Source of the DNA: Heterodontus francisci
Lineage: Eukaryota
DNA: 64,000 bases
NCBI RefSeq assembly: GCF_036365525.1
Contig: NC_090395.1
Span: forward strand, 71,253,232 to 71,317,231
Direction: 5' to 3'
In this document: piece by piece, positions 2,897 through 59,363 of the stretch
Layout: each line of letters begins with the position of its first letter
Position numbering within the stretch: position 1 is the stretch's first letter
Translations under genes and position numbers: made by a program
Notes under the pieces: generated by a model
Seen by the model: the letters and a program-made list of their open reading frames with translations, nothing else
The model's database searches: none
Told to the model about the DNA's origin: nothing

Positions 2897-3029
2897 TAAC
2901 CGGGAGATCTCGTTTTGATGAAGCCCGACCCAGGAAATGTGTTGAGGTTAGGATGGAGTCAGAGGGACAATTGGAATTCCTACCCTGCCAGAAGTTCACT
3001 TCACAGGGGAGGATTCTCAGCCTTATCTG

Positions 3030-3961: not shown

Positions 3962-4165
3962 AGGTCAGGCAGCATCTGTGGAGAGAGAAAGAAAGTTAAC
4001 GTTTCAGGTCAATGACTTTTTATCAGAAAGGTTCTGATGAAAGGTCATTGACCTGAAATGTTAGATCTCTTTCTCTCTCCACATGTGTTGCCTGACTTGC
4101 TGAGCATTTCCAGCATTTTCTACTTTTAGTTCAGATTCTCAGCATCTACAGTATTTTCCTTTTGT
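3962..4165. mobile_element. Older fold-back Penelope-terminus element (copy B)
   Basis: Inverted arms around ~4030 and CTGATGA-A-AGGTC-ATT-GACCT-GAAA at 4034-4058. The possible TSD is degenerate. Confidence 0.8.
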
Positions 4166-7375: not shown

Positions 7376-7433
7376 ACAAAAACACAGCAGCTCAGCCAGT
7401 ATCTGAAAACAATGAGAAAAGGACAGGCTAACC

Positions 7434-8583: not shown

Positions 8584-9134
8584 GGCTAACTTTTCCCATC
8601 CGATCAGAGCTGTTAAGATATAAGGCTTAGCAACAGCATTTACCCAATGGAGAAGACCCTTCTCTAGGTGTCCTAGTGGTACATTATGATAAGAACAGGA
8701 GGAGGCCATTCAGCCCCTTAAGCCTGTTCTTACATTCAATTAGGTCCTGACTGATCTGTATCTTAACTCTGTTTTTCTGCCTTGGTTCTGTAACCCTTAA
8801 TACAGGCAGGGTAGGACTCACAGCAAGTTTATTTTACACCAAACAGAGTCTAGTTAAGCAGCACATGACAGCAAACAATCTACAGAGTCTACTCAAAAAG
8901 TGTCTCTACAAATTTCAGTAAACAGAATTTGTGACTGAAACCCCAGCAATGTTTCCTGATCCATGCAGGACGATGCTTCCAGCAAAATGCAGTGAGTGGA
9001 GGAAGGTTGCATAGTACAAATTAGGTGCATAAAGTCAATCCCAGTCAGTTAGAGCAGTGCAGTCTCCAGGCGTGATTGACAGGTCCATTACTCAATCATC
9101 ACTATTCTGTTGGGAATAGTGGTGTCACTAAATA

Positions 9135-9231
9135 AAAACAAGAAATGCTGGAAATACTCAGCAGGTCTGGCAGCATCTGTGGAGAGCGAAGCAGAGTTAA
9201 CGTTTCAGGTCCGTGACCCTTCATCAGAACT
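9135..9231 (-). mobile_element. Single-arm Penelope-terminus element with canonical hammerhead core (copy C)
   Basis: Minus strand 9231-9195 reads AGTT-CTGATGA-A-GGGTC-ACG-GACCT-GAAACGTT-AACT. ACTAAATA is duplicated at 9127-9134 and 9229-9236. Confidence 0.85.
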
Positions 9232-10277
9232 AAATATGCAGCTCTGAAAATCTGCCCATGCTCAAGGTCTGTGCCCTGTTAAATAGACAACACATTGTAC
9301 ATCTTTGTGGAACTTGGGTTTTAAAGTGTCCTCTAATAAACCCTTACACTAGCTTTGAAAGAGGTGAATGTAGGATGACAGAATGCTATATTTGGCTGTG
9401 TCCTGTTATTTCTGCTTGTTGTGCAGTCCACAATATGCCACATCTGTGAGTTTTCTGTGAATCAAGAACAAACGAGACCCAAGGAGCTTAAGGGAACTCT
9501 GATTAGATTTTTAAAAGCAATTCTGTTCTGTAACAGCCAATCTGCTGCTAAAATATAACCTGCCATTGGAGTAGGGGTTAGAGTGAAGTATAGTTTGAAG
9601 CAAATAGAGGTGGAATTCAAAATGTTTCTTTCCCTCTTCCAGTGAAGGATATGCTTCAGTGGTCGGAGAGAATGAAAGAAACAATCGCATTGCAACATTT
9701 TCAACAAGGCTCATCAATGACAGATTGGACAAGACAAGAAGCCCTAGACCCCCAATCTTGACCCTTTTGCCCCTGCTTTCCACCCCCGCCCCCCCCCCCC
9801 CCCACCCCACCATGCCTAATGTGGATGGAGCTTGCGGGGGTGGGGGGTGTGGTTAAAATGACCAAGTCACCTAGCATTGTGTCACTCCCCATTTTAACAG
9901 GCGCATTCTAGCCAGCTCACAAGGCCTCATTGAAATTCAAAAGTCAGCGTTATGACCCTGATTATATTTTAACAATGGACAGTTTTGACACATTGCTTGA
10001 GCATTTTCTCAAGAAACTTGCTGCTCTTCTGCAAATAATTATCTCTGAAAGATATATGGCTAGATTTATCCTCCAGCTGTAGAGGGAGATGCTGAGAGAG
10101 GTCAGTAGAGGATTGTGCCAGAGCTTCCGCCCACTATCATGACCCCCATCACAACCTCAGTCACATCACCAACCTGCCTTGATGGTTTGTAGCTCCTTAA
10201 CCGTGCAGGCCCAAACATGGAGTCTCTGTCAATGAGGAAAATGTAGCAGAGTGATACTGCAGTGCCAGGAAGAGGAA

Positions 10278-10859: not shown

Positions 10860-11283
10860 TAGTGACTCATTTGGAATCACTCCTGCCTCTAAACTAAAAG
10901 GGTATGGGTTCAAGTCCTAATCTAGGAATTGAGTCCAAAACTCAAGGCTGACACTCCAGTGTAGTCTTTCATATAAGATGGTAAGCTGAGGTGCGAACTG
11001 CCCTCTCAGGTGGATGTAAAGGATCCCATAGCATTATTTGAAGAAGAGCAGGGGAGTTCTCCGCAGTGCCTCGCCAACATTTATCCTTCAATCAACATCC
11101 CAAAAAACAGATCATCTTGTCATTCTCATATTGCTGTTTGTGGGAGCTTGCTGCATTCAAATTGGCTGCCACATTCCCTACATTACAGCAGTACGAAACT
11201 TCTAAAGAAATACTTAATTGGCTGAAAAGCACTTTAGGACATCCTGAGGTAGTGAAAGGTGCTATAGAAATGCAAGTCTTTTT
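10860..11283 (+). mobile_element. Deu-domain SINE (SacSINE1/AmnSINE1-like) with L2-type tail
   Basis: B box GGGTTCAAGTCC, body CTCTCAGGTGGATGTAAAGGATCCCAT..GAAGAAGAGCAGGGGAGTTCTCC and tail GCTATAGAAATGCAAGTCTTT. Confidence 0.8.
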
Positions 11284-11379
11284 AATCACAACTGTAAACT
11301 CTTTCATGCATCAGCACAATGGAACAGCAGAATAGAATGTAATCGTTTCTTGATTTTCTCTTTCCATTATTCCTTGATG

Positions 11380-12000: not shown

Positions 12001-12534
12001 ACTTTCTCCCTTTTTCAGCCGCATGCACCTGTATTTGATGCAAAAATAAAACTTCTGAAATCATCCGATGCTTCAGTTATTCCACAGATGGTGTTGGCTC
12101 CTTTAGGCACTGAATAATGAATCTACATGACGTTTCTATACAGCTTGGTGTATCACTAAATCCTTTCATCATATCTATTTCAAATCTCCCTTTCTCTGAA
12201 TCATAATCGTCTTTACCTGTCAGTTATATAAAGCTCTGATCAGACCCCGTCTGGAGTAACTGCATTCAGTTCTGGGCACTGTGCCTCAGGATGGATATTC
12301 TGGCCTTGGAGGGAGAACAGCACAGATTCATCACAATGATACCAGGGCTGAAAGGGTGATATTAGGAGGACAGTTTGCATAGACTAGGCTTGTATTCCCT
12401 CAAGTATAGAATATTAAGGAGTGATCACATTGAGGGGTTTTGATTAAAAGATTTGATAGGGTAGATAGAGAGAAACTCTGGCAAGGTAGGCTAGACGGGA
12501 ATGCATGAACACAATCACAGGTAATGTCCAGAAA

Positions 12535-14705
12535 TAAAAGCAAAATACTGCGGATGCTTGAAATCTGAAATAAAAACAAGAAATGCTGGAACCACTCAGC
12601 AGGTCTGGCAGCATCTGTGGAAAGAGAAGCAGAGTTAACGTTTCGGGTCAGTGACCCTTCATCGGAACTGACAAATATTAGAAAAGTCACAGGTTATAAG
12701 CAAGTGAGGTGGGGGTGGGGCAAGAGATAACAAAGGAGGTCTAGATTGGGCCAGGCCACATAGCTGACCAAAAGGTCACGGAGCAAAGGCAAGCAATATG
12801 TTAATGGTGTGTTGAAAGACAAAGCATTAGTACAGATTAGGTGTTAATACACTGAATATTGAACAGCAGCAAGTGCAAACCTGAAAAAAAAACAGTGGGT
12901 AAGCAAACTGAACAAACTAAGATGAAATGAACTAAATGCAAAAAAAAAGATTGTAAAAAATGTAAAAAAGAATGTAAAAAAAAAAGGAAGAAAAAAATAA
13001 CTAAAAATGAAAATAAAATGGGGGGCTGTCATGCTCTGAAATTATTGAACTCAATGTTCAGTCCGACAGGCTGTAGTGTGCCTAATCGGTAGATGAGATG
13101 CTGTTCCTCGAGCTTGCGTTGATGTTCACTGGAACACTGCAGCAATCCCAGGACAGAGATGTGAGCATGAGAGCAGAGGGAAGTGTTGAAATGGCAAGCA
13201 ACCTGAAGCTCAGGGTCCTGCTTGCGGACTGAGCGGAGATGTTCCGCAAAGCGGTCACCCAGTCTGCGCTTGGTCTCCCCAATGTAGAGGAGACCACATT
13301 GTGAGCAGCGAATACAGTATACTACATTGAAAGAAGTACAAGTAAATCGCTGCTTCACCTGAAAGGAGTGTTTGGGGCCTGGGATAGTGAGGAGAGAGGA
13401 GGTAAATGGGCAGGTATTACACCTCCTGCGATTGCAGGGGAAGGTGCCATGGGACGGGGACGAGGTGGTGGGGGTAATGGAGGAGTGGACCAGGGTGTCA
13501 CGGAGGGAACAATCCCTTCGGAATGCTGACAGGGGAAGGGAGGGGAAGATGCGACTAGTAGTGGCATCACGCTGGAGGTGGCGGAAATGGCGGAGGATGA
13601 TCCTTTGGATATGGAGGTTGGTGGGGTGAAAAGTGAGGACAAGGGGAACCCTGTCACGGTTCTGGGAGGGAGGGGAAGGGATGAGGGTAGAGGTGCGGGG
13701 AATGGGCCGGACACGGTTGAGGGCCCTGTCAACCACAGTGGGGGGAAATCCTCGGTTGAGGAAAAAGGAGGTCATATCAGAAGCACCGTCATGGAAGGTA
13801 GCATCATCAGAGCAGATGCGTCGGAGACGGACAAACTGGGAGAATGGAATGGAGTCCTTACAGGAGGTAGGGTGTGAAGAAGTGTAGTCGAGGTAGCTGT
13901 GGGAGTCGGTGGGCTTATAATGGATATTAGTAGACAACCTATCCCCAGAGATGGAGACAGAGAAGTCGAGGAAGGGAAGGGAAGTGTCAGAGATGGACCA
14001 TGTAAAGGTGAGAGAAGGGTGGAAATTGGAAGTAAAGTTGATAAAGTTTTCCAGTTCGGGGCGGGAGCAGGAAATGGCACCGATACAGTCATCGATGTAC
14101 CGGAAAAAGAGTTGGGGGAGGGGGCCTGAGTAGGACTGGAACAAAGAATGCTCGACATATCCCACAAAAAGACAGGCATAACTAGGACCCATGCGGGTAC
14201 CCATAGCAACACCTTTTACTTGAAGGAAGTGCGTGGAGTTGAAGGAGAAGTTGTTCAATGTGAGATCAAGTTCAGCCAGGCGGAGGAGGGTGGTGGTGGA
14301 TGGGGACTGGTTGGGCCTCTGTTCCAGGAAGAAGCGGAGAGCCCTCAACCCATCCTGGTGGGGATGGAGGTGTAGAGCGATTGGACATCCATAGTGAAGA
14401 GGAGGCGGTTGGGACCAGGAAACTGGAAATTGTCAAAATGACGTAGGGCGTCAGAAGAGTCATGGATGTAGGTGGGAAGAGACTGGACCAGCGGAGAAAA
14501 GATAGAGTCAAGATAGGAAGAAATAAGTTCAGTGGGGCAGGAGCAGGCTGACACAATGGGTCTGCCGGGTCAGTCCCGTTTGTGGATTTTGGGAAGGAGG
14601 TAGAAGCGGGCTGTCCGGGGTTGTGGGACTATGAGGTTGGAAGCTGTAGAGGGAAGATCTCCAGAGGAGATGAGGTCAGTGACAGTCCTTTGGACGGTCA
14701 TGCCA
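12535..14705 (-). mobile_element. Penelope-like element (Neptune-type), 5'-truncated: RT plus GIY-YIG endonuclease, with 3' terminus
   Basis: RT motifs FTMDVQSLYTSIP, GVAMGTRMGPSYACLF and RYIDD. Cys linker PCNRRRCNTCP and GIY-YIG VVYCIRCSQCGLLYIGETKRRLGDRFAEH..GLN. One frameshift near 14350, stop at 13029. 13-bp TSD TAATGTCCAGAAA at 12522-12534 and 14706-14718. Confidence 0.95.
12633..12669 (-). ncRNA. Minimal type I hammerhead-like motif in the PLE terminus (variant core CCGAUGA)
   Basis: AGTT-CCGATGA-A-GGGTC-ACT-GACCC-GAAACGTT-AACT. PLE termini are known to carry minimal hammerheads. Confidence 0.65.
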
Positions 14706-15384
14706 TAATGTCCAGAAACACTTCTTCCCACAAAAAATTGTGAAAATCTGGAACTCTCTCCCCCAAAAAGCTGCGAGTCTGGGGGTCAATTGAAAATTTC
14801 AAAATGGAGGTTAATACATTTTTTTTTTGGTAAGGATTATAGAACCAAGGCAAGTAAATAGAGTTAAGACACAGCTAAGCCATGATCTAACTGAATGGCA
14901 GAACAGACCTGAGGTACCAAATGGCCTCCTCCTGTTCCTACGTGCCACATGCAGGAAATAAGGAGGAGAATGAACAAAGAGTTGACAATGGTCCTCACTC
15001 ACTCCCAGGATGCTCCATTGGTGTACCACCTACTTTGCGGTTACCTTCCGACCTCAGCTGGTAATTGCAGCACCTGCTATAGAAGTGAGACATGACATTA
15101 AGGGCTGTAGATGCTGTATATCACAGTGCCATACACTCATAAACCAGCTCCCCATTCCACCACAGCTCCCCAAATCAGTCATGCCATATCCCCTATCCCA
15201 AATTCCAAACATGACTCCTATAGTGAAAGTTGAAATGTTTAAGATTATGGCCACATACTGTGGGTGGGAGGTTGTGATCCCAATGTAGAGAATGTAGCCA
15301 GGCTTCCATTGTCTCAGCTTTCATTATAGCAGTAGACTAGATCTGGAGTGTGCAGTGGCTGCACTTTTAAAGAAATAAAAGGAA

Positions 15385-15800
15385 GCCTTTCGTTTCTATG
15401 GAAACTTTCATAACCTCAGGGTATCCCAAAACACTTTGTAACCATTAAGTACTCTTGAAGTGTAGTCACTGTTGTAATGTAGGAATGTGGCAGGAATTTG
15501 CACACAAACAGTAATGTGATAATGGCCAAATAATCTGTTTTAGTGATGTTGATTGATAGATAAATATTGGCCAGGACACCAGCAATAATTCTCCTGCTTT
15601 TCATCAAAATAGTGCCCAGGGATCTATTATCTCCACCTTAGATGGCAGACAGGGCCTTGGTTTGACAACTTATCTAAAAGATGCTATCTCCAACACTGCA
15701 GCATTCCCTCAATGAGAGTATCAGCCTGGATTTTTATACTCAAACCCTGGAATAGGACTTGAACCCACAACCTTCTAACTGAGAGGTAAATGTGCTACCT
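15385..15800 (-). mobile_element. Deu-domain SINE
   Basis: Reverse-complement match to 25770-26235 (TAAATATTGGCCAGGACACC, GGACTTGAACCC). Confidence 0.75.
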
Positions 15801-15899
15801 GCTGAACCACAGCTGATGTTGAGATGGAGGATGTTGCAGTCTTATTGAGAGCATTCCAATGTGTTCGTCGTCATCTTCAAACAAGCCACAAATGTCAAA

Positions 15900-16113
15900 A
15901 TAAAAGCAAAATACTGCAGATGCTGGAAATCTGAAATAAAAACAGAAAGTGCTGGAAATACTCAGCAGACCAGGCAGCATCTGTGGAGAGAAAAGCAGAG
16001 TTAACACTTCAGAATTCTGATGAAAGGTCACAGACCTGAAACGTTAACTCTGCTTCACTCTCCACAAATGCTGCCAGACCTGTTGAATATTTCCAGCATT
16101 TTCTGTTTTTATT
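15900..16113. mobile_element. Fold-back Penelope-terminus element (copy E)
   Basis: Inverted arms with canonical CTGATGA-A-AGGTC-ACA-GACCT-GAAACGTT-AACTC at 16017-16050. TSD CCAYAAATGTCAAA at 15886-15899 and 16114-16127. Confidence 0.85.
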
Positions 16114-16127
16114 CCATAAATGTCAAA

Positions 16128-25592: not shown

Positions 25593-25767
25593 CCTCGGTT
25601 CCTGCATTTCCAGTAAGGTAGCTGCAAATTGGCGGTGAAATTGGTCATTTCTCGGAACGATGGTTGTTCGTGCGTTTCATGCTGTCCTTCTCGCAGACTT
25701 CAATTTTTTTTTTGGCGATATGTTACTGCTACATCGAACAAGGACGATCTAAGTTACTTTCTTTGTC

Positions 25768-26235
25768 AGCCATGATTCATTGGGTAGCACTCTTGCTCCT
25801 TAGTCAGAAGGTAGGGGTGTCACCTTCCACTCCCGAGATTCGATCGCATAACCCAAGGCTGACACTCCCATTGCCAGTACTGAGGGAGTGCTGCCCTGTC
25901 GGAGGTGCCCTCTTTTGGATAAGGCCTTAATCCAAGGACCTGTCTGCCCTCCCAGGCTGGTGTAAAAGATCCCATGGCACTATTTTGAAGGTGAGCAAGG
26001 GGCGTTCTCCCTGGCGCACTGGCCAATATTTACCCCTCAACCAACATCATTAAACAACAGATTATCTGGTCATTATCTCATTGTTGTTTGTGGGAGCTGG
26101 CTGTGTGCAAGTTGGCTGCTGCATTTCCTACATTACAACAGTGACTGCACTTCAAAAAGTACTTTGTTGGCTGGAAAGTGCTTTGGGACATCCTGAGGTC
26201 ATGAATGGTGTTGTAGAACTGGAAGTTCCTTCATA
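25768..26235 (+). mobile_element. Deu-domain SINE, near full length
   Basis: CAGTACTGAGGGAGTGCTGC..GTCGGAGGTGCC..GTAAAAGATCCCATGGCACTATTTTGAAG body and L2-type tail. Confidence 0.85.
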
Positions 26236-26599
26236 CTTTCTGGTGACTTTGTTCAACAGTTGACCTTAGCAATGGCAAAAACAAATGTGAAGTAAAATTG
26301 CATTGTTAGTGCAAACTGAAGGTATTGACCAAAGACAGAGACCTTTTTGATGGGACTACCTTTAGAGCATGTGAGTGTAGGACTAGTCTCCTGGATATAG
26401 TTATGATTATTATGACTTTGCAATTCACATTTTATCAGTCTATGATAATAGTACATTTTTATTTGGAAATTCACAAGGAAACAAAAATCAGTGCAATTAT
26501 ACAAATTCAGATAATTTTTAAAAAACAATCAAACTTTTATTTCTATTATCGTCCTGAGCCCCTTTCATTTATCGAGCCTTAGGGGTTTCTTGGGTAGAT

Positions 26600-28480
26600 A
26601 AGAAAGATAAGGCAGAAGCATTTGCAACAATCTTCAGCCAGAAGTGCCGAGTTGATGATCCATCTCGGCCTCCTCCTGAAGTCCCCAGCATTACAGATGC
26701 CAGACTTCAGCCAATTTGATTCACTCCACGTGATATCAAGAAACGACTGAAGGCACTGGATACTACAAAGGCTATGGGTCCTGACAATATTCCAGCAATA
26801 GTACTGAAGACCTGTGCTCCAGAACTTGCCGCACCCCTAGCCAAGCTGTTCCAGTATAGCTCCAACACTGGCATCTACCCGACAATGTGGAAAATTGCCC
26901 AGGTATGTCCTGTACACAGAAAGCAGGACAAGTCCAACCCGTCCAATTACCGCCCCATCAGTTTACTCTCAATCATCAGCAAAGTGATGGAAGGTGTCAT
27001 CAACAGTGCAATCAAACGGCACTTGCTTAGCAATAACCTGCTCAGTGATACCCAGTTTGATTTCCAACAGGACCACTCAGCACCTGACCTCATTACAGCC
27101 TTGGTTCAAAAATGGACAAAAGAGCTGAACTCAAGAGGTGAGGTGAGAGTGACTGCCCTTGACATCAAGGCAGCATTTGACCGAGTATGGCATCAAGAAG
27201 CCCTAGCAAAACTGAGGTCAATGGGAATCAAGCGGAAAAATCTCTGCTGGTTAGAGTCATACCTAGCGCAAAGGAAGATGGCTGTGGTTGGTGGAGGTCA
27301 ATCATCTGAGCTCCAGGACATCACAGCAGGAGTTCTTCAGGGTAATATCCATCTTCAGCTGCTTCATCAATGACCTTCCTTCAATCATAAGGTCAGAAGC
27401 GGGGATAAAAACAAAAAATGCTGGAAACACTCAGCAGGTCTGGCAGCATCTGTGGAAAGAGAAACGTTAACTCTGCTTCTCTTTCCACAGATGCTGCCAG
27501 ACCTGCTGAGTGGTTCCAGCATTTCTTGTTTTAATTTCAGAATTCCAGCATCCGCAGTATTTTGCTTTCATTATTATTACAGAAGTGGGGATGTTCGCTG
27601 ATGATTGCACAATGTTCAGCACCATTCCTGACTCCTCAAATACTGAAGCGGTCTGTATAGAAATGCAGCAAGACCTGGACAATATCCAGGCTTGGGCTGA
27701 TAAGTGGCAAGTAACATTTGCGCCACACAAGTGCCAGGCAATGACCATCTCCAACAAGAGAGAATCTAACCATCGCCCTTTGACATTCAATGGCATTACC
27801 ATCGCTGAATCCCCCACTATCAACATCCTAGGGGTTACCATTGACCAGAAACTGAACTGGAGTAGCCATATAAATACCGTGACTACAAGAGCAGGTCAGA
27901 GGCCAGGAATCCTGCAGCGAGTAACTCACTTCCTGACTCCTCAAAGCCTGTCCACCATCTACAAGGCACAAGTCAGGAGTGTGATGGAATACTCTCCACT
28001 TGCCTGGATGGGTGCAGCTCCAACAACACTCAAGAAGCTCGACACCATCCAGGACAAAGCAGCCCACTTGATTGGCACCCCATCCACAAACATTCACTCT
28101 CTCCACCACTGACGCACAGTGGCAGCAGTGTGTACCATCTACAAGATGCACTGCAGCAACGCACCAAGGCTCTTTAGACAGCACCTTCCAAACCCGTGAC
28201 CTCTACCACCTTGAAGGACAACGGCATCAGAAGCATGGGAACACCACCACCTCCAAGTCACACACCATCCTGACTTGGAACTATATCGCCATTCCTTCAC
28301 GGTCGCTGGGTCAAAATCCTGGAACTCCCTTCCTAACAGCACTGTGGGTGTACCTACCTCACATGGACTGTGGCGGTTCAAGAAGGCAGCTCACCACTAC
28401 CTTCTCAAGAGCAATTAGGGATGGGAAATAAATGCTGGCATAGCCAGTGATCCCCACTTCCCATGAATTAATAAAAAAAA
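26600..28480 (+). mobile_element. LINE family B, 5'-truncated RT region with poly-A end
   Basis: GPDNIP, NYRPISLLS, ALDIKAAFDRVWH and MFADD motifs; 3' end ..CCCATGAATTAATAAAAAAAA. Confidence 0.92.
27407..27579. mobile_element. Fold-back Penelope-terminus element (copy F) inserted in the LINE RT
   Basis: Inverted arms with most of the hammerhead core absent at the junction. TSD CAGAAGYGGGGAT at 27394-27406 and 27580-27592. Confidence 0.88.
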
Positions 28481-36497: not shown

Positions 36498-36733
36498 TAA
36501 AATTAAATGAACAGAATGCTTTCTAAGTTACTTCTAACATTATCTATCAGGATAATATTAGGTTCAAATATCTGATTAATTTACTAAAATACTTGTTATT
36601 GCTGACCTAATGGTATTGTAGAATCTCATAACATAATGACTTTAAAAAACATTAACACAGTGTATTAGTCAGATAATGCACATTTTGCCTCCTCAGTAAA
36701 GTAGAGCAAATCTCACAATAAAGGCTTTAAAGA

Positions 36734-36969
36734 AATAAAAGCAAAATACTGCGGATGCTGGAAATCTGAAACAAAAACAAGAAATGCTGGATTCACTCAG
36801 CAGGTCTGGCAGCATCTGTGGAAAGAGAAGCAGAGTTAACGTTTCGGGTCAGTGACCCTTCTTCGGAATGTTCCGAAGAAGGGTCACTGACCCGAAACGT
36901 TAACTCTGCTTCTCTTTCCACAGATGCTGCCAGACCTGCTGAGTGAATCCAGCATTTCTTGTTTTTGTT
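36734..36969. mobile_element. Fold-back Penelope-terminus element (copy G), perfect hairpin
   Basis: Arms 36770-36868 and 36871-36969 are reverse complements with a TG spacer. 15-bp TSD TAAAGGCTTTAAAGA at 36719-36733 and 36969-36983. Confidence 0.93.
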
Positions 36970-43173: not shown

Positions 43174-43474
43174 ATAACCATAGCACCAGGAGAAAAAACT
43201 GAATCATAAAACATCTGTATGGACATACACTAGCCATCTTTCCAACCTTTTGCAGTCATATTTATGATTTAGTGCCATTTAGAGCTGAAAGTTTGAACGT
43301 TTTCATGCCGTGAACTCTCTTACTTGGAGCTACATTAATGCTGCTTTAAGTGCACTTCACTTACAACCATTACAGCTGGCAATGAAAGGAGATTTTCATC
43401 CCATCAGATTAAGTTGGCATTGAGCCCAGGTCCTTTGCCATCCATTCCCTCTCCAAAAATACAGCAGATGAATG

Positions 43475-43680
43475 AGAGCAGGCAAATTGTCCCCGTGTCC
43501 TGGCCAATATTTATCCCACAACCAACATCACTGAAACAGATTATCTTGTCATTATCACGTTACTGCTTATGGGAGCTTGCTGTGCTCAAATTAGCTGCTA
43601 TGTTTCCTACAATAAAACAGTGACTACATTTTAAAGAGTACTTCATGCAAGCTGCTATATAAATGTAAGTCTTTCTTGCT
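43475..43680 (+). mobile_element. Deu-SINE 3' fragment
   Basis: GTGTCCTGGCCAATATTTATCCC..GCTATATAAATGTAAGTCTTT. Confidence 0.75.
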
Positions 43681-44301
43681 TTCCTTCTCTCTCTCTCTCT
43701 ATTTCTGATTTTATCACCAATGCTTCAAATTCTGAGCACAGACCTGAGCTTATAGGCTTTTGCCAACTGATGGACACATAGTTCAATGAAGCAAAGTAGC
43801 CTTTAAAGACTAATTGCCAGCACAGTTCCACTGTCTCATATCAGATGAAAGCCTCAGACAACATTTGAAAATGAAAAATTGCAAGCCTTCTTTAATGGGC
43901 CTGTGTATACAGACATCTTTACAAGGTGCACTCAGCATGCTGACAGCCGTTAGTCTTAGCAGGAATGTTTTCAAAACTGGACAACAGCATTAATGATTTA
44001 AAATCCCAGGCTACAACTGTCTGTGTGCTGCAATGTTATTCACTTCATCCATTTGACCTGACACACAGCTGTTTATAGACCACAGTGAGGCCCTCCACTA
44101 TTTCCAGTCTGTGACAATCATTGTTAGGTCTAGCATTGAGAAACTCGGGGTCCATTTGCACTTACATGTTCAATATTCAGGATAGTAATACAGGGTTCAG
44201 AAAATGTTGGTGCATTGAAACCCCAAATGTCTTTTACAGTCAGTTGCACCGCGTTAACAGAAAAGAAACAGGCCATTTGGCCCAACTGGTCCGTGCTGGT
44301 G

Positions 44302-47300
44302 TTTTTTTTGATTCGGTCGTGGGATGTGGGCATTGCTGAATAGGCCAGAATTTATTGCCCATCCGTAATTGCCCTTGAGAAGGTGGTGGTGAGCTGCCTT
44401 CTTGAAGCGCTGCAGTCCTTAGGGTGTAGGTACACTCACAGTGCTGTTAGGAAGGGAGTTCCAGGATTTTGACCCAACGACAGTGAAGGAACAGCGATAT
44501 AGTTCCAAGTCAGGATGGCATGTGGCGGTGTTCCCATGCATCTGCTGCCCTTGTCCTTCTAGGTGGTAGAGGTCGCGGGTTTGGAAAGTGCTGTCTAAGG
44601 GGCGTTGGTGCGTTGCTGCAGTGCATCTTGTAGATGGTACACACTGCTGCCACTGTGCATTGGTGGTGGAGGGAGTGAATTTTGAAGATGGTGGATGGGG
44701 TGCCAATCAAGCGGGCTGCTTTGTCCTAGATGGTGTCGAGCTTCTTGAGTGTTGGAGCTGCACCCATCCAGGAAAGTGGAGAATATTCCATCACACTCCT
44801 GACTTGTGCCTTGTAGATGGTGGACAGGCTTTGGAGAGACAGGAGGTGAGTTACCCGCCGCAGAATTCTCAGCCTCTGACCTGCTCTATTAGCCACGGTA
44901 TTTATGTGGCTGGTCCAGTTCAGTTTCTGGTCAATGGTGACCCCCAGGATGTTGATAGTGGGGAATTCAGTGATGGTAATGCCATTGAACGTCAAGGGGA
45001 GATGGTTAGATTCTCTCCTGCTGGAGATGGTCATTGCCTGGCACTTGTGTCGTGTGAATGTTACTTGCCACTTATCAGCTCAAGCATGGATATTGTCCAG
45101 GTCTTGTTGCATTTCTACACCGACTGCTTCAGTATCTGAGGAGTTGTGACTGGTGCTGAACATTGTGCAATCATCAGCGAACATCCCTAATTCTGACCTT
45201 ATGATGGCAGGAAGGTCATTGATGAAGCAGCTGAAGATGGTTAAGCCTAGGACACGACCCTGAGGAACTCCTGCAGTGATGTCCTGGGATTGAGATGACT
45301 AACCACCAACAACCACAACCATCTTCCTTTGCGTTAGGTATGACTCCAAACAACGGAGAGTTTTCCCCCTGATTCCCATTGACTCTAGTTTTGCTGGGGC
45401 TCTTTGATGCCATACTCAGTCAAATGCTGCCTTGATGTCAAGGGCAGTCACTCTCACCTCACCTCTGGAGTTCAGCCCTTTTGTACATGTTTGGACCAAG
45501 GCTGTAATGAGGTCAGGAGCTGAGTGGCCCTGTCAAAAACCAAACTGGGCGTCAGTGAGCAGGTTATTGCTGAGCTAGTGCCACTTGACGGCACTGTCAA
45601 CAACCCCTTCCATCACTTTGCTGATGATCGAGAGTAGACTGATAGGGTGGTAATTAGCCGGGTTGGATTTGTCATGCTTTTTGTACAGAACATGCCTGGG
45701 CACTTTTTCACATTTTTGGGTAGATGCTAGTGTTGTAGTTGTACTGGAACAGCTTGGCTAGGGGCGTGGCTAGTTCTGGAGCACAGGTCTTCCATACTAT
45801 TTCTGGAATGTTGTCAGGGCCCATAGCCTTTGCAGTATCCAGTGCCTTCAGCCGTTTCTCGATATCACGTGGAGTGAATTGGATTGGCTGAAGACAGGCA
45901 TCTGTGATGCTGGGAACCTCAGGAGGAAGCCGAGATAGATCATCCACTCGGCACTTCTGGCTGAAGATGGACGCAAATGTACTGATGTGCTAGACTCTCC
46001 CATCAATGAGGATGGCGATATTTGTGGAGCCTCCTCCTCCTGTCAGTTGTTGAATTGTCCACCGCCATTCATGACTGGATGTGACAGATCACTGAAAGTG
46101 GCAACGCAGGTGGATCAGGTAGTTAAGAAGGAATACGGCATGCTTGCCTTCATCGGTCAGGGCATAGAGTATAAAAATTGGCAAATCATGCTGCAGCTGT
46201 ACAGAACCTTAGTTAGGCCACACTTGGAATATTGCATACAATTCTGGTCGCCACACTACCAGAAGGATGTGCAGGCTTTGGAGAGGGTGCAGAAGAGGAT
46301 GTTGTTTACCAGGATGTTGCCCGGTCTGGATGGTATTAGCTATGAGGAGAGGTTGGATAAACTCGGATTGTTTTCACTGGAACGACGGAGGTGGAGGGGC
46401 AACATGATAGAGGTTTACAAAGTTATGAGTGGCATGGACAGAGTGGATAGTCAGAGGCTTTTTCCCAGGGTGGAAGAGTCAGTTACTAGGGGACATAGGT
46501 TTAAGGTGTGAGGGGCAAAGTTTAGAGGGGATGTGCGAGGCAAGTTTTTTACACAGAGGGTGATGAGTGCCTGGAACTTGCTGCCCGGGGAGGTGGTGGA
46601 AGCAGGTACAATAGCGACGTTTAAGAAGCATCTTGACAAATACATGAATAGGATGGGAATAGAGGGATATGGTCCCCGGAAGTGCAGAAGGTTTTAGTTT
46701 AGGCAGGCATCAAGATTGGTGCAGGCTTGGAGGGCCGAATGGCCTGTTCCTGTGCTGTACTGTTCTTTGTTCTTTGACTGCAGAGCCGTTGGTTATGGGA
46801 TTGCTAAGCCCTGTCTATCGCATGCTGCTTACGCTGTTTGACATGCAAGAAGTCCTGTGTTGTAGCTTCACCAGGCTGATACCTCATTTTATGTATGCCT
46901 AGTTCTGCTCCTGGCATGCCCTCCTGCACTCTTCATTGAACCAGGGTTGGTCGCCTGGCTTTATGTTAATGGTACAGTGGGGGATAAGCCTGGCCATGAG
47001 GTTACAGATTGTGGTTGAATACAATTCTGCTGCTGCTGATGGCCCACAGTGCCTCATGGATGCCCAGTTTTGAATTGCTAGATCTGTTCGAAATCTATCC
47101 CATTTAGCACAGTGGTAGTGCCTCACAACATGATGGAGGGTATCCTCAGTGTAAAGATGGGACTTTGTCTCCACAAGGACTGTGTGGTGGTCACTCCTAC
47201 CAATACTATCATGTGCACTGCCATGCATCTGCGACAGGTAGATTGGTGAGGACGAGGTCGAGTAGGTTTTTCCGTCTTTTTGGTTCCCTCATCACCTGCC

Positions 47301-48180
47301 GCAGACCCAGTCTAGCAGCTATGTCCTTTCAAATTCAGCCAGCTCAGTCAATAGTGGTGCTACTGAGCCACTCTTGGTGACAGGCATTGAAAACCCCACC
47401 CAGAGTACATTTTGTGCCATTGCTCAGTGCTTCTTCCAATTGGTGTTCAACACAGAGAAGCATTGATTCATCATCTGCAGGAGGGTGGTAGGTGGTTTCC
47501 TTGACCAGGTTTGACATAATGCCATGAGACTTTATGGGGTCAGGAGTCAATATTGAGGATTCCCAGGGTATCTCCCTCCCGACTGTATACCACTGTGCTG
47601 CCATCTGGATAGGACATACCCAGGGATGGTGATGGTGGTATGTGGGACATTGTCTGCAAGGTATGATTCTGCGAGTATGACTATGTCAGGTTGTTGCTTA
47701 ACTAATCTGTGGGACAGCTCTCTCAATTTTGGCACAAGCCCCCAGATGTTAGTAAGGAGGACTTTGCAGGGTCAACAGGGCTGGGTTTGCCATTGTCTTT
47801 TCCGGTGCCTAGGTCAATGCCGGGTGGTCCATCCGGTTTCATTCCTTTTCTTAGGCTTTGTAGTGGTTTGATACAACTGAGTGGCTTGCTAGGCCACTTC
47901 AGAGTCAATCACATTGCTGTGGGTCTGGAGTCACATGTAGGCCAGACCAGGTAAGGGCAGCAGATTTCCTTCCCTAAAGGTGAACCAGATGGGTTTTAAC
48001 AACAAATGACAATGGTTTCATGGTCACCACTAGATTAGCTTTTAATTCCAGATTTTTTATTGATAGAATTCAAATTCCACCATCTGCCGTGTTGGGATTC
48101 AATCCCATGTCCCCAGAGCATTAGCCTTGGGGATCTGAATTATTAGTCTAGTGACATTACCACTATGCCACCACCTCCCC
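44302..48180 (-). mobile_element. Apparently full-length LINE family B (tRNA-like head, APE endonuclease, RT, A tail), degraded
   Basis: APE motifs QQPDIVILAESYL and IGRSDHHTV, linker PWFNEECRRA, RT GPDNIP onward. Head at 48180-48090. A host CR1 tail continues collinearly from 44301 to 48181. Confidence 0.9.
46087..46775 (+). mobile_element. CR1 3' fragment nested in LINE family B
   Basis: LYRTLVRPHLEYCIQFWSPHYQKDV peptide; tail TGTTCTTTGTTCTTTG. Confidence 0.9.
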
Positions 48181-48555
48181 TCTCCATATGAACCTCCTCC
48201 CACTCCTCTTCATTTCACCCCATCAACATAACCTTCTATCCATTCATTCCTCATGTGCTTATCTAGCTTCCACTTAAATGCATCTATAATATTCGCCTCA
48301 ACTACTCCTAGTGGGAGAAAGTTCCACATTCTAACCACTCTCTGGGTAAAGTTTTTCCTGAATTCCCTATTGGATTTATTAGTGACTATCTTATATTTAT
48401 GGTCTCTAGCTTTGTTCTCCTCACAAGTGGAAACATTTTCTCTACATCTATCTTATCAAACTCTTTCATTAACTTAAAGACCTCTATCAGGTCACCTCTC
48501 AGCCTTCTCCTTTCGAGAGAAAAGACCCTCAGTCTGTTCATCACTTCCTGATAGT
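48181..48555 (-). mobile_element. CR1 3' fragment (continuation of 44255-44301)
   Basis: Collinear with the uninterrupted relative at 4850-5110. Confidence 0.75.
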
Positions 48556-50185
48556 TTTGATGGAGAATTTTTCATTTTCCCCTTGCTATTGGAGATACTG
48601 ACTCCTGACTGGGTAAGATTACATTGCTTCCATCTGGTACCTCACCCAAGAGGTCATTCTTAATGCGAGCTTCTAGACGGTGTATGTCAACAAGCTATTT
48701 ATCCATGGCGTGCACTACAGCTGAGCCCGATCCTGCTCTTACCTGATAAGAACAAGTAGAGAGTTTATTAGAGAGTAATCTGGAGCACTTCTTCCCTTCC
48801 CAAACTCAATGATATGGAGACCAAATGTAGGATTCTCTACAACTGGCCAGCTGACGTTAGCTAATGCCGTGTAGATCAGAATTAAACCTGGGAACTTTCC
48901 AGGCATGTGTGGCTCAGTGTCCATTGGATAAATTTTCCTCAGGAGGTTTTTTTCATGCTTTGTAAATACAAAATAATGGAGTCAATAGAGTTTGCTAAGC
49001 CTACCAGTGACATCTAGGGATAAATCTTTAGTACTGCAACAGACATTTTTCAATGCTCATTTTCGAACCATGGATCCTTTCCACACTGACTGATTGGGAT
49101 TTCCATCCTTTGCTGCTTGACATATACCAGACAAAAAAACTGACAAACCCAAAGTAATCTACAGCACGATCCCTTGTTGCATTGCCTCCAAGAAACCAGT
49201 AATTTCCTGATTTATTTCGTTGGTGAGCCCATGTGGTGATTAACTGTGAGGATTAGGCCAAGTGTTAGATTGACCTCTCACGGAATCAAGGGATATGGGG
49301 TGCGGGCGGGAAAGTGGAGTCGAGGCAGAAGATCAGCCATGGTCATATTGAATAGTGGGGCAGGCTCGAGAGGCCTTATGGTCTACTCATGCTCCTATTA
49401 TTTATGTTCTTATGTTCTCAAGCTGCAAACCTATCAAAACCTCGCCCCTGACAGAAAAAGGACCAATCAGGCAGATCTTCACTCAATTATTCATATTTGG
49501 TTTGCTGTAAAGTTACTATGATCGTGTCACTAAAGGAAAATCAATAACAATGGGGCATAAAGTTACTCCAAATTGCAAGATCTACAGGGTACACTGTATT
49601 TACAGCACAGAGCAAGGTAATTCAGTCCAACAGATCTATGCTGGTGTATATGCTCCCACAAACCATCTGGTACAGTGTACGTTAGCCACAGAATAATGTT
49701 TTTGCCACACTGGCCACCTAGGCATCACCAGGTCAGCAACAACGTGAAATTAAATACAGAGTGATATTCCCTCACAGAAGTAGGACCAAGTCAGATACCA
49801 TACACATTAGATACAGACTAAAGCACCCTCTACACTCTTCCATCAAGTAGGACCAAATCAGCTATAGCATAGATTTGATGTAACCTAAAGCTTCCTTTGC
49901 ATGTGATGGAAATAGAAATTTCCCTTTTTATTTCATACGTTACACATGGCTAAGGTCAAAAATAGAGGCTATTAATTATTTGCTAAGTTTTGAAATGGAA
50001 GACAGGAGACAGTGAGTCTGGTAGTAATGAACAATAGCTTGTGTTCAGAACTCAGTTCAGATAATGTCATTTCGAAAAGTGCTGCAGCTGTTTGAAATGT
50101 TGTTGTCTGCAGGTAACTGATGGAAAAGGTCCATGCTTAGCTTCATGTTAGCTGCTGAACTCAAGAGTAAGGCTGCACAAGTTGC

Positions 50186-50689: not shown

Positions 50690-50915
50690 AAAAAAGGACT
50701 TGCATTTATATAGCACTTTTGACAAACAACTGACGTCTCAAAGTGCTCAACATCTAATGTAGTACTCTGAAGTGTAATCATCATTGTAATGTAGGAGATA
50801 CTGCAGCCAATTTTCACACAGCAAGCTCCCACAAACAGCAATGAGATAATGACCAAATAATCTATTTTTGTGCTGTTGATTGAAGGATAAATATTGGCCA
50901 GGACATCGGAGATAA
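50690..50915 (-). mobile_element. Deu-SINE 3' fragment
   Basis: GACTTGCATTTATATAGCAC..AAGCTCCCACAAACAGCAATGAGATAATGACC. Confidence 0.8.
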
Positions 50916-51660: not shown

Positions 51661-52357
51661 GTGGATCTGAAGAACCTTCCATCTGTCCTTCACATCTCAT
51701 AGTAATGTCACTGGGATCTGCTGGTACAGGCTCATTTAGAAGAAGAGCCTCTAATTATGTAACACCTCCTGAAACAAGGTACGTTACTTCTCTCTTCAGA
51801 TAATGCATGGAGTCCCTCTCATCCAGTCTGACCCATCTGAATCCCTTCATATCTCATTTTCCTCCAGACATGTTAGTTCATTGGATCCTTATTGGTAACC
51901 CTCTGGTATTATAAATTGGAGCTGGGACCAAATGCCAAAAAAAAGTCACAAAAGCTCATGAAAAGCTAAATACAGTAGAGAAAAGAAATTACAAGAAAGG
52001 TCTTTAAAAGGCCGGAAACACATCTTTTAACATTTGTGGGCCTGTTGAAGGCCCTCCCACATGAACGTTTGCTTAAAGCCATCTAGCAGTACTCTACTAT
52101 GGATGACTATTTGGCACTAATAATAAATTATTCAAAATATGAAGCAGGAGAAATACCTACAATTACCCGAGAGCGGTAGACTTCACGTTGATTGTAGTTC
52201 TCTAGTTACTGGCCAAGACACTCCTTCTGTACATCTGTAACATTGAAGTTTCTTTAACAGTTGCTTTTATACTTTAATTCCAGGGAGGGACAAGATAGTA
52301 TACTGACAGTGGCTTACAGTCCAATTAATATTTGTTTTAGGCTGATATGCCCTATTA

Positions 52358-53153
52358 GGGGGAATGGTAGTATAATGGTAATGTGACTCGACTAATAATC
52401 CAGACACATGAGTTCAAATTCCACCAGGGCAGCTGTTAGGATTTAAATTTAATTAATAAATCTGGAATAAAATGCTTATCTCATTAATAACGATCATCAT
52501 GAAACTACCAGATTGTTGTTAAAAACCCATCTGGTCCACTACAGAATTGTTACAACACAGAAAGAGGCCATTCGGTCTGTCATGTCTGCACCGGCTCTCT
52601 GAAAGAGCAATTTACCTAGTGCCTTCTCCCCGTGGCCCTGCACACTTTTCATTTTCAGATAACACTCCAATTCCCTCTTGAATGCCTCGAATGACCCTGC
52701 CTCCACCACCCTCTCAGGCAGTGCATCCCAGATCCCAACCACTCGCTGCAGAAAAAAAGTTTTTCTTCATGCTGCTGTTGCTTCTTTTGCCAATTACCTT
52801 AAATCTGTGCCCTCTTGTTCTCGATCCTTCCACCACACTGATGACCTTCAGAAGAAGAAATCTGCCATCCTCACCTAGTCTGGCCTACATTTAACTCCAG
52901 ACCCACAGCAATGTGGTTGATTCTTAACTGCCCTTTGAAATGTTGCCGCAAGCCATGCAGTTGTATCAAACTGCTACAGAAAATAGCACTGTGTACACCC
53001 ACACACTATGGATGTATCTTTACAACATGGTTTTAACATTTCTGCAACAGTTCAAGAAGGTGACTCACCAACACCTTCTCAAAGGCAATTAAGGATGGAC
53101 AATAAATGCTGACCTTTCAAATGATACTCACCTCCCAAGGACGAATGAAAAAA
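52358..53153 (+). mobile_element. SINE-like derivative of LINE family B (head, body, tail), with a CR1 tail nested at ~52540-52832
   Basis: The 5' part matches the reverse complement of 48180-47862. The 3' part matches the family B tail (TTCAAGAAGG..CTCACC..GGCAATT..AATAAATGCTG..GAATGAAAAAA). Confidence 0.8.
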
Positions 53154-53172
53154 GTCACATGCTGAGTCTTCA

Positions 53173-54765
53173 GGGTGGCACAATGGCGCAGTGGTTAGCA
53201 CCGCAGCCTCACAGCTCCAGCAACCCGGGTTCAGTTCTGGGTACTGCCTGTGCGGAGTTTGCAAGTTCTCCCTGTGTCTGTGTGGGTTTCGGCTGGGTGC
53301 TCTGGTTTCCTCCCACAGCCAAAGACTTGCAGGTTGATAGGTAAATTGGCCATTGTAAATTGCCCCTAGTGTAGGCAGGTGGTAGGAGAATGGTGGGGAT
53401 GTGGTAGGGAATATGGGGTTAATGTAGGATTGGTATAAAGGGGTGGTTGTTGATCAGCACAGACTTTTTTTTTAGAACATTACAGCGCAGTACAGGCCCT
53501 TCGGCCCTCGATGTTGCGCCGACCTGTGAAACCATCTGACCTACACTATTCCATTTTCATCCATATGTCTATCCAATGACCACTTAAATGCCCTTAAAGT
53601 TGGCGAGTCTACTACTGTTGCAGGCAGGGCGTTCCACGCCCCTACTACTCTCTGAGTAAAGAAACTACCTCTCACATCTGTCCTATATCTATCACCCCTC
53701 AACTTGAAGCTGTGTCCCCTCGTGTTTGCCATCACCATCCGAGGAAAAAGACTCTCACTATCCACCCTATCCAACCCTCTGATTATCTTATATGTCTCTA
53801 TTAAGTCACCTCTCCTCCTCCTTCTCTCCAACGAAAACAACCTCAAGTCCCTCAGCCTTTCCTCGTAAGACCTTCCCTCCATACCAGGCAACATCCTAGT
53901 AAATCTCCTCTGCACCCTTTCCATAGCTTCCACATCCTTCCTATAATGCGGTGACCAGAACTGCACGCAATACTCCAGGTGCGGTCTCACCAGAGTTTTG
54001 TACAGCTGCAGCATGACCTCGTGGCTCCGAAACTCGATCCCCCTACTAATAAAAGCTAACACACCATATGCCTTAACAGCCCTATTAACCTGGGTAGCAA
54101 CCTTCAGGGATTTATGCACCTGGACACCAAGATCTCTCTGTTCATCTACACTACCAAGAATCTTCCCATTAGCCCAGTACTCTGCATTCCTGTTACTCCT
54201 TTCAAAGTGAATCACCTCGCACTTTTCCGCATTAAACTCCATTTGCCATCTCTTAGCCCAGCTCTGCAGCCTATCTATGTCCCTCTGTACCCTACAACAT
54301 CCTTCGGCACTATCCACAACTCCACCGACCTTAGTGTCATCCGCAAATTTACTAACCCACCCTTCTACACCCTCTTCCAGGTCATTTATAAAAATGACAA
54401 ACAGCAGTGGCCCCAAAACAGATCCTTGCGGTACACCATTAGTAACTAAACTCCAGGATGTACATTTGCCATCAATCACCACCCTCTGTCTTCTTTCAGC
54501 TAGCCAATTTCTGATCCAAAGCTCTAAATCACTTTCAACCCCATACTTCCGTATTTTCTGCAATAGCCTACCGTGGGGAACCTTATCAAACGCCTTACTG
54601 AAATCCATATACACCACATCCACTGCTTTACCCTCATCCACCTGTTTGGTCACCTTCTCGAAAAACTCAATAAGGTTTGTGAGGCACGACCTACCCGTCA
54701 CAAAACCGTGCTGACTTGGTGGGCCGAAGGGCCTGTTTCAGTGCTGTATCTATAAATAAAAAAAA
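53173..54765 (+). mobile_element. HE1-type V-SINE split by a CR1 insertion
   Basis: HE1 sequence 53173-53466 resumes at 54713; GACTT is duplicated at the junctions. Confidence 0.88.
53467..54712 (-). mobile_element. Young 5'-truncated CR1 LINE (uninterrupted 386-codon RT frame)
   Basis: ORF 53541..54701 with DFSKAFDKVPH, GVPQGSVLGP and FADDTK; short tail ending in an A run. Confidence 0.95.
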
Positions 54766-57700: not shown

Positions 57701-59053
57701 TGTGTGAGCCATATTATCAAGAATTAAAGACTCCCACATACTTTATCATAATAACCAGGATTTCACTTTGCCACAATGGAAACCTGGTTTCCACAACTTA
57801 ACAGGTTAGTTAACCTTAATAATTCCAATTCAATACAGACCAATGTTTATTAACTAAACACAGAATAGAATAGCACATGCTAAAAAAGAAAAGATAAATT
57901 ACTTAATTTTTCTTGTGCTTTCTTCAGGCGCCTTCCAAATGACTGTAATAAAACTAAAGGAAAAGTTAGCGTTCACAGTTAAATGAAACCTTCAACATTC
58001 TTATATCATAAAGAGTTAAAGAGGGCAGAGCTTTGCACAGCTTGTGAACTCTGAAACTTTCACACCAGTTTCTTAAAGCAACAATGCTGCAAACTTGCAG
58101 TTTTTAAACAGTATAAAAGGGGCCAGAATCTTTCCCGTATCTCGATTATTTATGTTTTTTTCTCCCTTAAGGCATTTTATCAATTTCAGATGTCTTTAAA
58201 TTACATTGCAAAAAAAAACAATAGCAGTATTTTTTAACAAAAACTCCAGTACAATTAATGCATAGTGTTTTGGAAAGTTTAAACTGGATTTCTGCCAGAC
58301 ATCTTCAAGGCTTCAAGGCTGAAGCTTATCTCTTATAAAGCAAACACTTTGGTGTCTTTCACAATTGCAAAACTAAACTTATGCTTCCAACATTGAAGGC
58401 AAGACTACAAAGGGTTAATGACTTTTAGCTCTGCAGAGAAGGGTGTAAATCTCCAGCAAACAGAATTTTTTTTAAAAAACAAATTTTCATTCGCAACTCG
58501 GGAAGCTCTCCACCTCTCTCATACACAGATACTGAATACAGAATCCAGTTGCCTTTCCTTAAAAACAGAACATGTCAGCTATTCCTTTTTTCATAGCAGT
58601 TTTAATTTTTGTTGTGAGCCTTTTTAACTTATTTCTTTTCTCAGGTGGGGGTTCAGGTGGGGGTCAGTTATTACCAGGTCCTCTATCGCAACCTTCTCTC
58701 CACCACTATCCAATGACACCCATGTTCCTTCCACTGGGACCATTCCTTGCATGCAAGTGTACCCCTGCATCCACTATTCTGCTTTGCTGATGGTCTCTCT
58801 TGTACCCACCCCTCCTCCAGGGTAATTCACAGAGTGGACCTTCTTGGACTCCCCCTCCCCCCTCCGAGGGATAATTTCCATGCAACATATTTAGTAACCA
58901 ATTCATCCAAAAATATTCCCTTAAGATTTGATTGTTCCATTACTCCTTATTCATTTCACTTTGTGGACGGCTATATCTGTAGAACCTTTTGGTCTACTTA
59001 TTCTGGTTTATACATGAGAAGTACAGGAAATAATGGAGTGCACTCAAACTTCT

Positions 59054-59363
59054 GGGCGGCACAGTGGCGCAGTGGTTAGCACCGCAGCCTCACAGCTCCA
59101 GTGACCTGGGTTTGGTTCTGGGTAATGCCTGTGTGGAGTTTGCAAGTTCTCCCTGTGACTGTGGCGGTTTCAACCAGGTGCTCCAGTTTCCTCCCACTGC
59201 CAAAGACTTGCAGGTTGATAGGTAAATTGGCCATTTTAAATTGCCCCTAGTGTTGGTAGGGAATATGGGATTAATGTAGGATTAGTAAAATGGGTGGTTG
59301 ATGGTCAGCACAGACTTGGTGGGCCAAAGTGCCTGTTTCAGTGCTGTATCTCTCTATGACTCT
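59054..59363 (+). mobile_element. HE1-type V-SINE
   Basis: GGGCGGCACAGTGGCGCAGTGGTTAGC head, V-domain and tail CTCTATGACTCTA. Confidence 0.9.

Follow-up and report, generated by a model that had tools for sequence, protein, structure and literature searches.

A decayed full-length Zenon LINE with a tRNA-derived 5′ head in Heterodontus francisci: a candidate for transcription by RNA polymerase III

Introduction

Long interspersed elements (LINEs) are, by rule, mRNAs made by RNA polymerase II (Pol II), while SINEs, or short interspersed elements, are non-coding parasites that RNA polymerase III (Pol III) makes. We examined an element that begins like a SINE and continues as a LINE. It lies in a stretch of 64,000 nucleotides of Heterodontus francisci (contig NC_090395.1, positions 71,253,232 to 71,317,231; hereafter the window, whose numbering is used throughout). 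Judged by its sequence, the element (48180-44302) belongs to the elasmobranch Zenon LINE family, which is abundant in sharks and rays, and represents a full-length but decayed copy. It was labelled Zenon because its 5′ 400 nt are near-identical to published rows of that name (PMC13343379).

Zenon elements were described by Stuart et al. (2026) from five elasmobranchs, hagfish and coelacanth as LINEs without open reading frame 1 (ORF1) and with a poly-A tail (PMC13343379). The published elasmobranch members resemble the present element in head, body and leader letters (over 400 nt), in length, in the lack of ORF1, in the A tail and in a CR1-group endonuclease-reverse transcriptase (APE-RT) (PMC13343379). 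The denominators of the published table give 2313 long copies for white shark and 1419 for whale shark (PMC13343379), and Zenon LINEs are described in the accessible text of another paper as donors of tails to bivalve SINEs (PMC11481361). The missing ORF1, which the initial annotation of this locus treated as an anomaly for a CR1-group LINE, is no surprise, because Zenon, Rex1 and several lineages of L2 normally do without it (PMC13343379). The word 'tRNA' does not occur in the main text or the preprint of the Zenon paper, whose accessible parts leave the 5′ end, the promoter, T runs, the start codon and short derivatives undiscussed (PMC13343379). The family and its lack of ORF1 are already published; the SINE-type head and the near absence of terminators appear to be unremarked.

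From sequence comparisons, we give an about even chance to the reading that this is a Pol III-transcribed single-ORF LINE, whose RNA would start at the head, run through the whole element, be translated non-canonically and be retrotransposed in cis, with SINEs arising from it by deletion.

Structure of the element

The element is on the minus strand, with its 5′ end at 48180 (GGGGAGGTGG) and an A tail (44309-44302) at the other end. Its parts, the host sequence around it and a short relative are as follows.

48181-48560, minus strand: host CR1 3′ region, upstream half (insertion target); aligns to the CR1 3′ ends at 3355-3470 and 5011-4894
48085-48180, minus strand: tRNA-derived head with A box, B box and remnant of an anticodon loop; the 5′ end is 10 nt before the A box
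47860-48084, minus strand: SINE-like body of ~225 nt, common to the short form
47725-47842, minus strand: conserved AUG (47842) and short frame MKPDGPPG.., overlapping the APE start in the +1 frame
47772-47894, minus strand: Arg-rich leader in the APE frame, without an in-frame AUG
46777-47771, minus strand: APE endonuclease and linker, decayed by stops, frameshifts and deletions
46090-46776, plus strand: nested 3′ fragment of a canonical CR1, opposite in orientation; a later insertion, outside the element proper
44365-46089, minus strand: decayed reverse transcriptase (RT) and C-terminal portion of the single ORF; its last residues are ..HHHLLKGN, where other copies stop with TAG
44302-44364, minus strand: short 3′ untranslated region (UTR) with a predicted GGGATGGGC/GCCCACATCCC stem, then the A tail
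44255-44301, minus strand: downstream half of the host CR1 3′ end; public contigs include the host form without interruption, as a loose end at 44304
52357-53155, plus strand: short non-coding form, in which the same head and body run into the final ~140 nt of the LINE; a CR1 piece lies inside at about 52541-52840

Fragments of APE and RT were detected by Pfam. In blastx, 47837-44377 was colinear with intact relatives of 962-983 amino acids through APE, RT and the C-terminus, in agreement with the earlier view of a single-ORF CR1-group LINE. The 5′ end is separated from the APE-frame leader by ~340 nt; a single APE-RT ORF is present and ORF1 is absent. The ends of the nine copies compared are A-rich, as the poly-A tail of Zenon elements would have it. 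Folding of the head (z -1.6), leader (z 0.5), body (z -0.5/-0.6) and tail (z -0.45/-1.6) was in no case significant against shuffles, and the 3′ UTR stem had no compensatory pairs among nine copies.

The tRNA-derived head

The A box noted earlier at the start of the element (48170-48160) and the B-box-like motif that follows it (48106-48094) are both present in the sequence: the first reads TGGCATAGTGG and the second, one base short of the box consensus, GGGATTGAATCCC, on the minus strand. A strict A+B pattern based on the box consensus had a single match on both strands of the 64 kb, at this head. A relaxed pattern had five; of the four elsewhere, three were at the heads of other SINE-like repeats. 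ARAGORN found no tRNA at the head, and the Rfam tRNA model aligned over 48171-48091 with 15.2 bits, the cut-off being 29 bits. On this sequence evidence, the head is tRNA-derived and not a tRNA gene.

By eye, and with the same box consensus, the published elasmobranch rows retain the A box (TRGCNNAGTGG) in 7/7 and the B box (GTTCRAATCC) in 6/7, and the letters of the spacer and acceptor stem differ among the seven headed rows. Every headed consensus, like this copy, starts 5-11 nt before the A box. Pol III initiates at about that distance before an A box. The published heads also retain, by eye, a CTGGA-CTAGTAA-TCCAG-like anticodon arm (48149-48133 here) with AGT in the loop, which, by the usual tRNA layout, presumably points to a tRNA-Thr(AGU) origin.

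The head could also act as RNA: it would mimic a tRNA, and cleavage by RNase P would release the element's 5′ end from read-through transcripts. The outcome would be an uncapped RNA whose 5′ end lies precisely at tRNA +1, and self-cleaving ribozymes in ORF1-less or target-specific LINEs (R2, RTE, Ingi) are a precedent. We regard it as very improbable: the acceptor-stem letters are unconserved among the seven rows (by eye), no cloverleaf fold was obtained for this copy (z -1.6), ARAGORN was negative and the Rfam score was 15.2 bits.

Distribution of the head in the Zenon family

The Zenon rows in the accessible text of Supplementary Table 2 of PMC13343379 were compared over the first 400 nt per row. 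The same head and body, followed by the same leader, open all seven elasmobranch rows (2886-3314 characters; Zenon-1 of CarCar, HypSab, RhiTyp and ScyCan, and Zenon-1, -2 and -3 of SquAca; five species). The two hagfish rows and the coelacanth row begin otherwise, the head being found in 0/3 within the first 400 nt. A body motif matched those seven elasmobranch rows and no other in the searchable supplement text. The published rows were built by extending RT seeds, and therefore represent RT-bearing copies (PMC13343379).

Contigs of public sequencing runs agree with the published rows. In three DNA runs, the summed depth at the APE start (0.86-1.03 M) showed no drop against the adjoining body bin (0.87-1.33 M); the head bin had 0.20-0.36 M, lower than the body, and the CR1 flank 0.03-0.04 M, summed depth not being copy number and the low bins coinciding with deletions in this copy. 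Among the 32 contigs listed of >900,000 pieces, three with 46-61 differences bridge 47607-47930, 47616-47885 and 47627-47968, that is, from APE into the leader or body. Of the four proteins matched by the APE start, three include a long part of the same leader joined to APE, and the fourth has its last residues. The protein matches that bear names come from sharks. A further run, X18, guessed to be RNA, contains the element; it was not used as evidence of expression.

The proposal that head and LINE inserted as one unit is thus borne out on a family-wide scale, by 7/7 consensus rows, by bridging contigs and by proteins from other loci. Copies of the APE region extend to the same head in the consensus rows and to the same leader or body in the contigs and proteins, and long elasmobranch copies with another 5′ end or with an ORF1 did not come to light. 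A short form with the same head does exist in the window, as might be expected if the junction were a one-off chimera, or a SINE and a truncated LINE inserted side by side. We give that explanation almost no credence, since it is refuted by the shared junction, and the length of the element without its nested CR1 piece (~3190 nt) fits the published consensus lengths given above.

The RT was placed phylogenetically, as the initial annotation had proposed, by a quick maximum-likelihood search that contains no named Zenon reference. Of the 58 rows in this tree, 23 form a clade (SH-aLRT 99) that unites three window copies with a lepidopteran and a lancelet protein, and the window's three canonical CR1 rows fell away from it; the element belongs to a Zenon-type clade apart from canonical CR1. 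The RTEX clade, an early guess, was dropped in view of the published Zenon rows and the RT tree.

Searches of other collections added little. No usable shark copies came from public viral and genome contigs with the protein P0001, nor from metagenome contigs with either a piece of the RT or the leader motif. The body motif had no match in viral contigs and three isolated 19-20-nt matches in genome contigs, and alignment A1 gave nothing usable against viral contigs.

T runs and possible read-through by Pol III

Internal T runs had been expected to stop Pol III in this element. The family is, however, nearly free of T runs of four or more: 4 were counted in the 9831 nt of 11 Zenon pieces of the window, against 10.4 expected from dinucleotide shuffles. 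Nine CR1 pieces of the window (6679 nt) had 28, with 28.7 expected. T and G each make up 21% of the bases of the Zenon pieces, and runs of at least four number 20 for G and 3 for T after trimming of the tails; for a T run, the probability of being extended declines from 0.20 to 0.11 to 0.08. In coding parts, the number of such T runs per kb was 0.38 for Zenon, 4.1 for CR1 and 6.05 for 80 related loci, which are the best 80 of 399 from GTDB species-representative genomes. The T5 at about 45540 is missing from 3/3 overlapping window copies, and 53-100% of the depth, depending on the sequencing run, has a broken T4 at 47393-47390; both T runs of this copy are absent from most copies. By eye, TTTT occurs within the first 400 nt of none of the seven headed rows and of 3/3 headless rows (PMC13343379). 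Read-through by Pol III is possible because T runs of this length are nearly absent.

Several points weigh against transcription by Pol III. Uncapped Pol III RNA is poorly translated. A null model with protein and third-base use fixed gave a mean of 1.5-2.1 T4 runs per ~2 kb, with a probability of 0.09-0.18 of finding none. L005, the nearest relative with DNA, has one T4 run in 2763 coding nt and a similar C-rich code (it also has an in-frame AUG, and T5 and T6 runs in its 3′ UTR), and the coding part of L078 is T4-poor as well. The window copies are not independent, and one copy alone covers the 5′ half. On these comparisons, the T-run scarcity is explained for the most part by C-rich codon use; as the codon-level null predicts few T4 runs, the scarcity permits read-through by Pol III without proving selection. 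Contigs cannot show transcript start, strand or level. That an A/B pair was found upstream of 0/40 invertebrate-type relatives counts in favour of the proposed reading, but only two of the 40 (L004, L051) belong to the Zenon-type clade of the tree. Kojima (2018) treats LINEs as transcribed by Pol II (PMC5786205, accessible text).

The SINE-derived 5′ module may accordingly be read as an internal Pol II promoter that gives a capped RNA, the T-run scarcity being a by-product of C-rich codons, the nearly invariant body binding factors and the TFIIIC sites at most helping. The codon-level null, which accounts for most of the T4 scarcity, the T4-poor ORF of L005 and the received view of LINE transcription (PMC5786205) all speak for this. 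So does the body, whose 3′ half is by eye nearly invariant across five species and more conserved than the head, and so does the AATAAA that this copy, like most window copies, carries in its tail. Yet the A and B boxes and a 5′ end at tRNA +1, neither of which Pol II needs, have been kept in five species, and a scanning ribosome would find no in-frame AUG. We consider a Pol II promoter unlikely, though deserving of serious attention.

The scan of relatives also bears on how the head was obtained. That a LINE acquired a SINE module, as was first proposed, is likely insofar as relatives lack the head; short forms may instead be deletion products of a headed LINE. With just two scanned relatives in the Zenon-type clade, the sequence evidence makes it no more than likely that the elasmobranch line gained the head. 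ARAGORN found no tRNA in 41 relative loci, a result that is uninformative because the program also misses the present head.

Two observations on the relatives may be added. L078:37-1632, on the canonical CR1 side, has a single run of four or more T, against an expectation of 7.6 given its codons (P about 0.001). The 399 GTDB species-representative stretches (including L004-L083) encode an animal-type CR1-group APE-RT, and many are in bins of symbionts of bivalves or other invertebrates; they are likely host DNA contamination of these bins.

Leader and start codon

The APE frame around the leader reads ..RNETGWTTRH*PRHRKRQWQTQPC*PCKVLLTNIWG. The peptide LKWPSKP..DPAKSSLLT, which had been taken as the lead-in to APE, lies in another frame. 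Both stops in the leader are TGA, and the published rows have CGA there. The Arg-rich leader resembles the basic leader of the intact relative P0010.

No AUG follows the last stop in the APE frame. The AUG at 47842 is present in 6/7 published rows; it starts a +1 frame, which overlaps the first strand of APE. The overlap was confirmed by eye in the HypSab row, the only AUG-bearing row visible that far. The predicted proteins P0167 and P0168 start at this conserved AUG. Since an in-frame AUG is absent, initiation would have to be non-canonical or to involve a change of frame, and this would fit an uncapped RNA better than a scanned mRNA. Upstream of the leader, an ATG-GCC-TAG-CAA mini-frame is intact in six published rows and, by eye, in the APE frame in 3/6; in this copy it is also in the APE frame, as GTG. 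Stop read-through from the mini-frame is unsupported, the other 3/6 intact rows being out of the APE frame by eye. No conserved -1 slippery heptamer was seen by eye between the conserved AUG and the APE start.

A division of labour would account jointly for the retained A and B boxes, the absent terminators and the absent AUG: Pol III would make template RNA from the head, and the protein would be supplied in trans by copies lying in, or spliced into, host Pol II transcripts, so that the family would be transcribed like a SINE and autonomous only collectively. Family pieces occur inside the predicted host proteins P0005, P0006 and P0165, and few intact ORFs are published (0/2313, 1/1419, 3/612, 1/294, 0/396, 0/59; PMC13343379). 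These chimeric host proteins are, however, gene predictions only. Moreover, for an ORF to persist over hundreds of millions of years, selection has to act on the copy from which the protein is made, and cis-preference supplies such selection. We hold such a division of labour to be improbable.

Short forms and origin of the body

The SINE-like body reported after the head (about 200 bp in the initial annotation) is present, with ~225 nt. The short form at 52357-53155 is short and non-coding, as a SINE should be; the full element, which is 3.2 kb long and coding, is not. Joints that skip 3497 nt (44377-47875) and 3465 nt (44405-47871) were found in 4/4 runs, and further variants in one run. At least three junctions among the short forms suggest repeated internal deletion of a headed LINE, so far as sequence comparison can indicate. 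Alternatively, a donor SINE may have swapped tails.

The body matched none of the Meta-, V- and Deu-type sequences with which it was compared, a comparison that had been recommended at the outset. Against two V-like repeats of the window, it scored 26 and 29, below shuffle maxima of 32 and 37, and against three Deu-like repeats, 22-26, below shuffle maxima of 35-46. By eye, it had no likeness to the accessible BivaV rows (V domain) or to those of BivaMeta-SINE1 and BivaMD-SINE1 (Meta domain, which has 66 bp and directly follows the head) (PMC4824008). Four exact motifs were absent from the accessible supplement on bivalve MetaSINEs (PMC4824008), and exact body motifs from the supplements of PMC5804259 and PMC11481361. 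A Meta domain, an early guess, was dropped for want of likeness, by eye, to the bivalve Meta rows (PMC4824008).

Insertion site and neighbouring repeats

In alignments, the two flanks of the element match adjoining stretches of two other CR1 3′ ends of the window. The target lost ~2-3 nt at insertion and has no target-site duplication; the split of a single CR1 tail around 44302-48180, described earlier as exact, is real but good only to within 3 nt. Those coordinates do mark the ends of the element, but the ~690-nt CR1 piece nested at about 46090-46776 in opposite orientation belongs to another element. On the other strand, the insertion target has the sequence TTT/A, which would suit an APE nick and A-tail priming.

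CR1 3′ fragments are inserted in both the short (52541-52840) and the full-length (46090-46776) headed elements, and the headed element itself lies inside a CR1 tail. Either Zenon and CR1 activity overlapped in time, or several CR1 waves bracket the headed element.

Three Zenon fragments of different age abut at 5266-7389 in alternating orientation. The piece at 5266-5600 is just ~70% alike to the main family; therefore, older Zenon subfamilies exist. A young palindromic family, like miniature inverted-repeat transposable elements and 90-98% alike, occurs at 36731-36969, 2653-2897, 3953-4163, 9130-9237, 12530-12678, 15898-16119 and 27397-27574, and one copy interrupts a Zenon fragment at about 27407-27574. 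tRNA-headed SINE copies with CR1-type tails are found at 8130-8450, 53172-53466 and 59049-59353; we take these to resemble the shark V-SINE HE1. The SINEs at 10886-11290, 15383-15830, 25766-26240, 43469-43647 and 50692-50915 presumably resemble SacSINE1 (Deu type).

Proposed mechanism and comparison with known systems

For transcription by Pol III, we propose the following course. In an ancestral Zenon element, before the split of sharks and rays, template switching would have put a SINE 5′ module in the place of the 5′ UTR. TFIIIC and Pol III would initiate at +1 and are predicted to read the whole 3.3 kb, as far as the first genomic T tract past the A tail. The uncapped RNA would be translated non-canonically, from a non-AUG start in the Arg-rich leader or by a shift or restart from the conserved out-of-frame AUG. 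The protein would bind the 3′ stem and copy the RNA in cis by target-primed reverse transcription, and internal deletions would yield ready-made SINEs that retain promoter and tail.

Taken together, these steps would describe a SINE-LINE hybrid, an autonomous coding LINE of vertebrates whose Pol II promoter was replaced by a tRNA-derived one before the shark/ray split, whose terminators were purged over 3.3 kb including the ORF, whose uncapped RNA is translated without an in-frame AUG and which sheds SINEs by internal deletion. This full statement we put forward tentatively, at somewhat less than an even chance. If it is true, a Pol III head on a coding element across sharks and rays breaks the rule that assigns LINEs and SINEs to different polymerases; the element would provide a natural multi-kilobase Pol III transcript that is translated, and SINEs would be born directly by deletion of a headed LINE. 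If Pol II is used instead, this is still a LINE that took over the 5′ module of a SINE for its UTR, a point on which the paper describing the family is silent in its accessible parts.

No description of a Pol III-headed autonomous LINE was found in the literature searched, subscription papers and Repbase Reports lying mostly outside it, so that absence is unproven. Among known elements, R2 is comparable to the proposed model: it is a single-ORF non-LTR (long terminal repeat) element that uses a polymerase other than Pol II, has an uncapped RNA and lacks a conserved start methionine. R2 differs in its co-transcription with rRNA by Pol I, its site specificity, its ribozyme and its restriction-like endonuclease.

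In the shark pairs HE1/HER1 (V-SINE) and SacSINE1/L2 (Deu-SINE), a tRNA-headed SINE shares its 3′ tail with a partner LINE (PMC3747384, PMC5499810). In the accessible text, these pairs share the tail only, unlike the headed Zenon LINE (PMC3747384, PMC5499810). RTE-1_DAn and elements related to it are comparable in one respect, as this LINE is said to hold a tRNA-like sequence that matches many SINE2 elements (PMC5786205); it differs in belonging to the RTE clade, and the passing sentence devoted to it in the accessible text assigns the sequence neither a position nor a function and makes no claim of transcription by Pol III. The short form at 52357-53155 resembles the bipartite SINEs Bov-tA, AfroSINE, CoeSINE4/5 and SINE2_Gav, which combine a tRNA head with parts of a LINE from its 5′ and 3′ sides, and the clades listed there as forming them are RTE, Ingi, Vingi and R2 only (PMC5786205). 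In those SINEs, the head was added to a deleted LINE and the autonomous LINE is headless (PMC5786205), whereas here a full-length CR1-group LINE bears the head.

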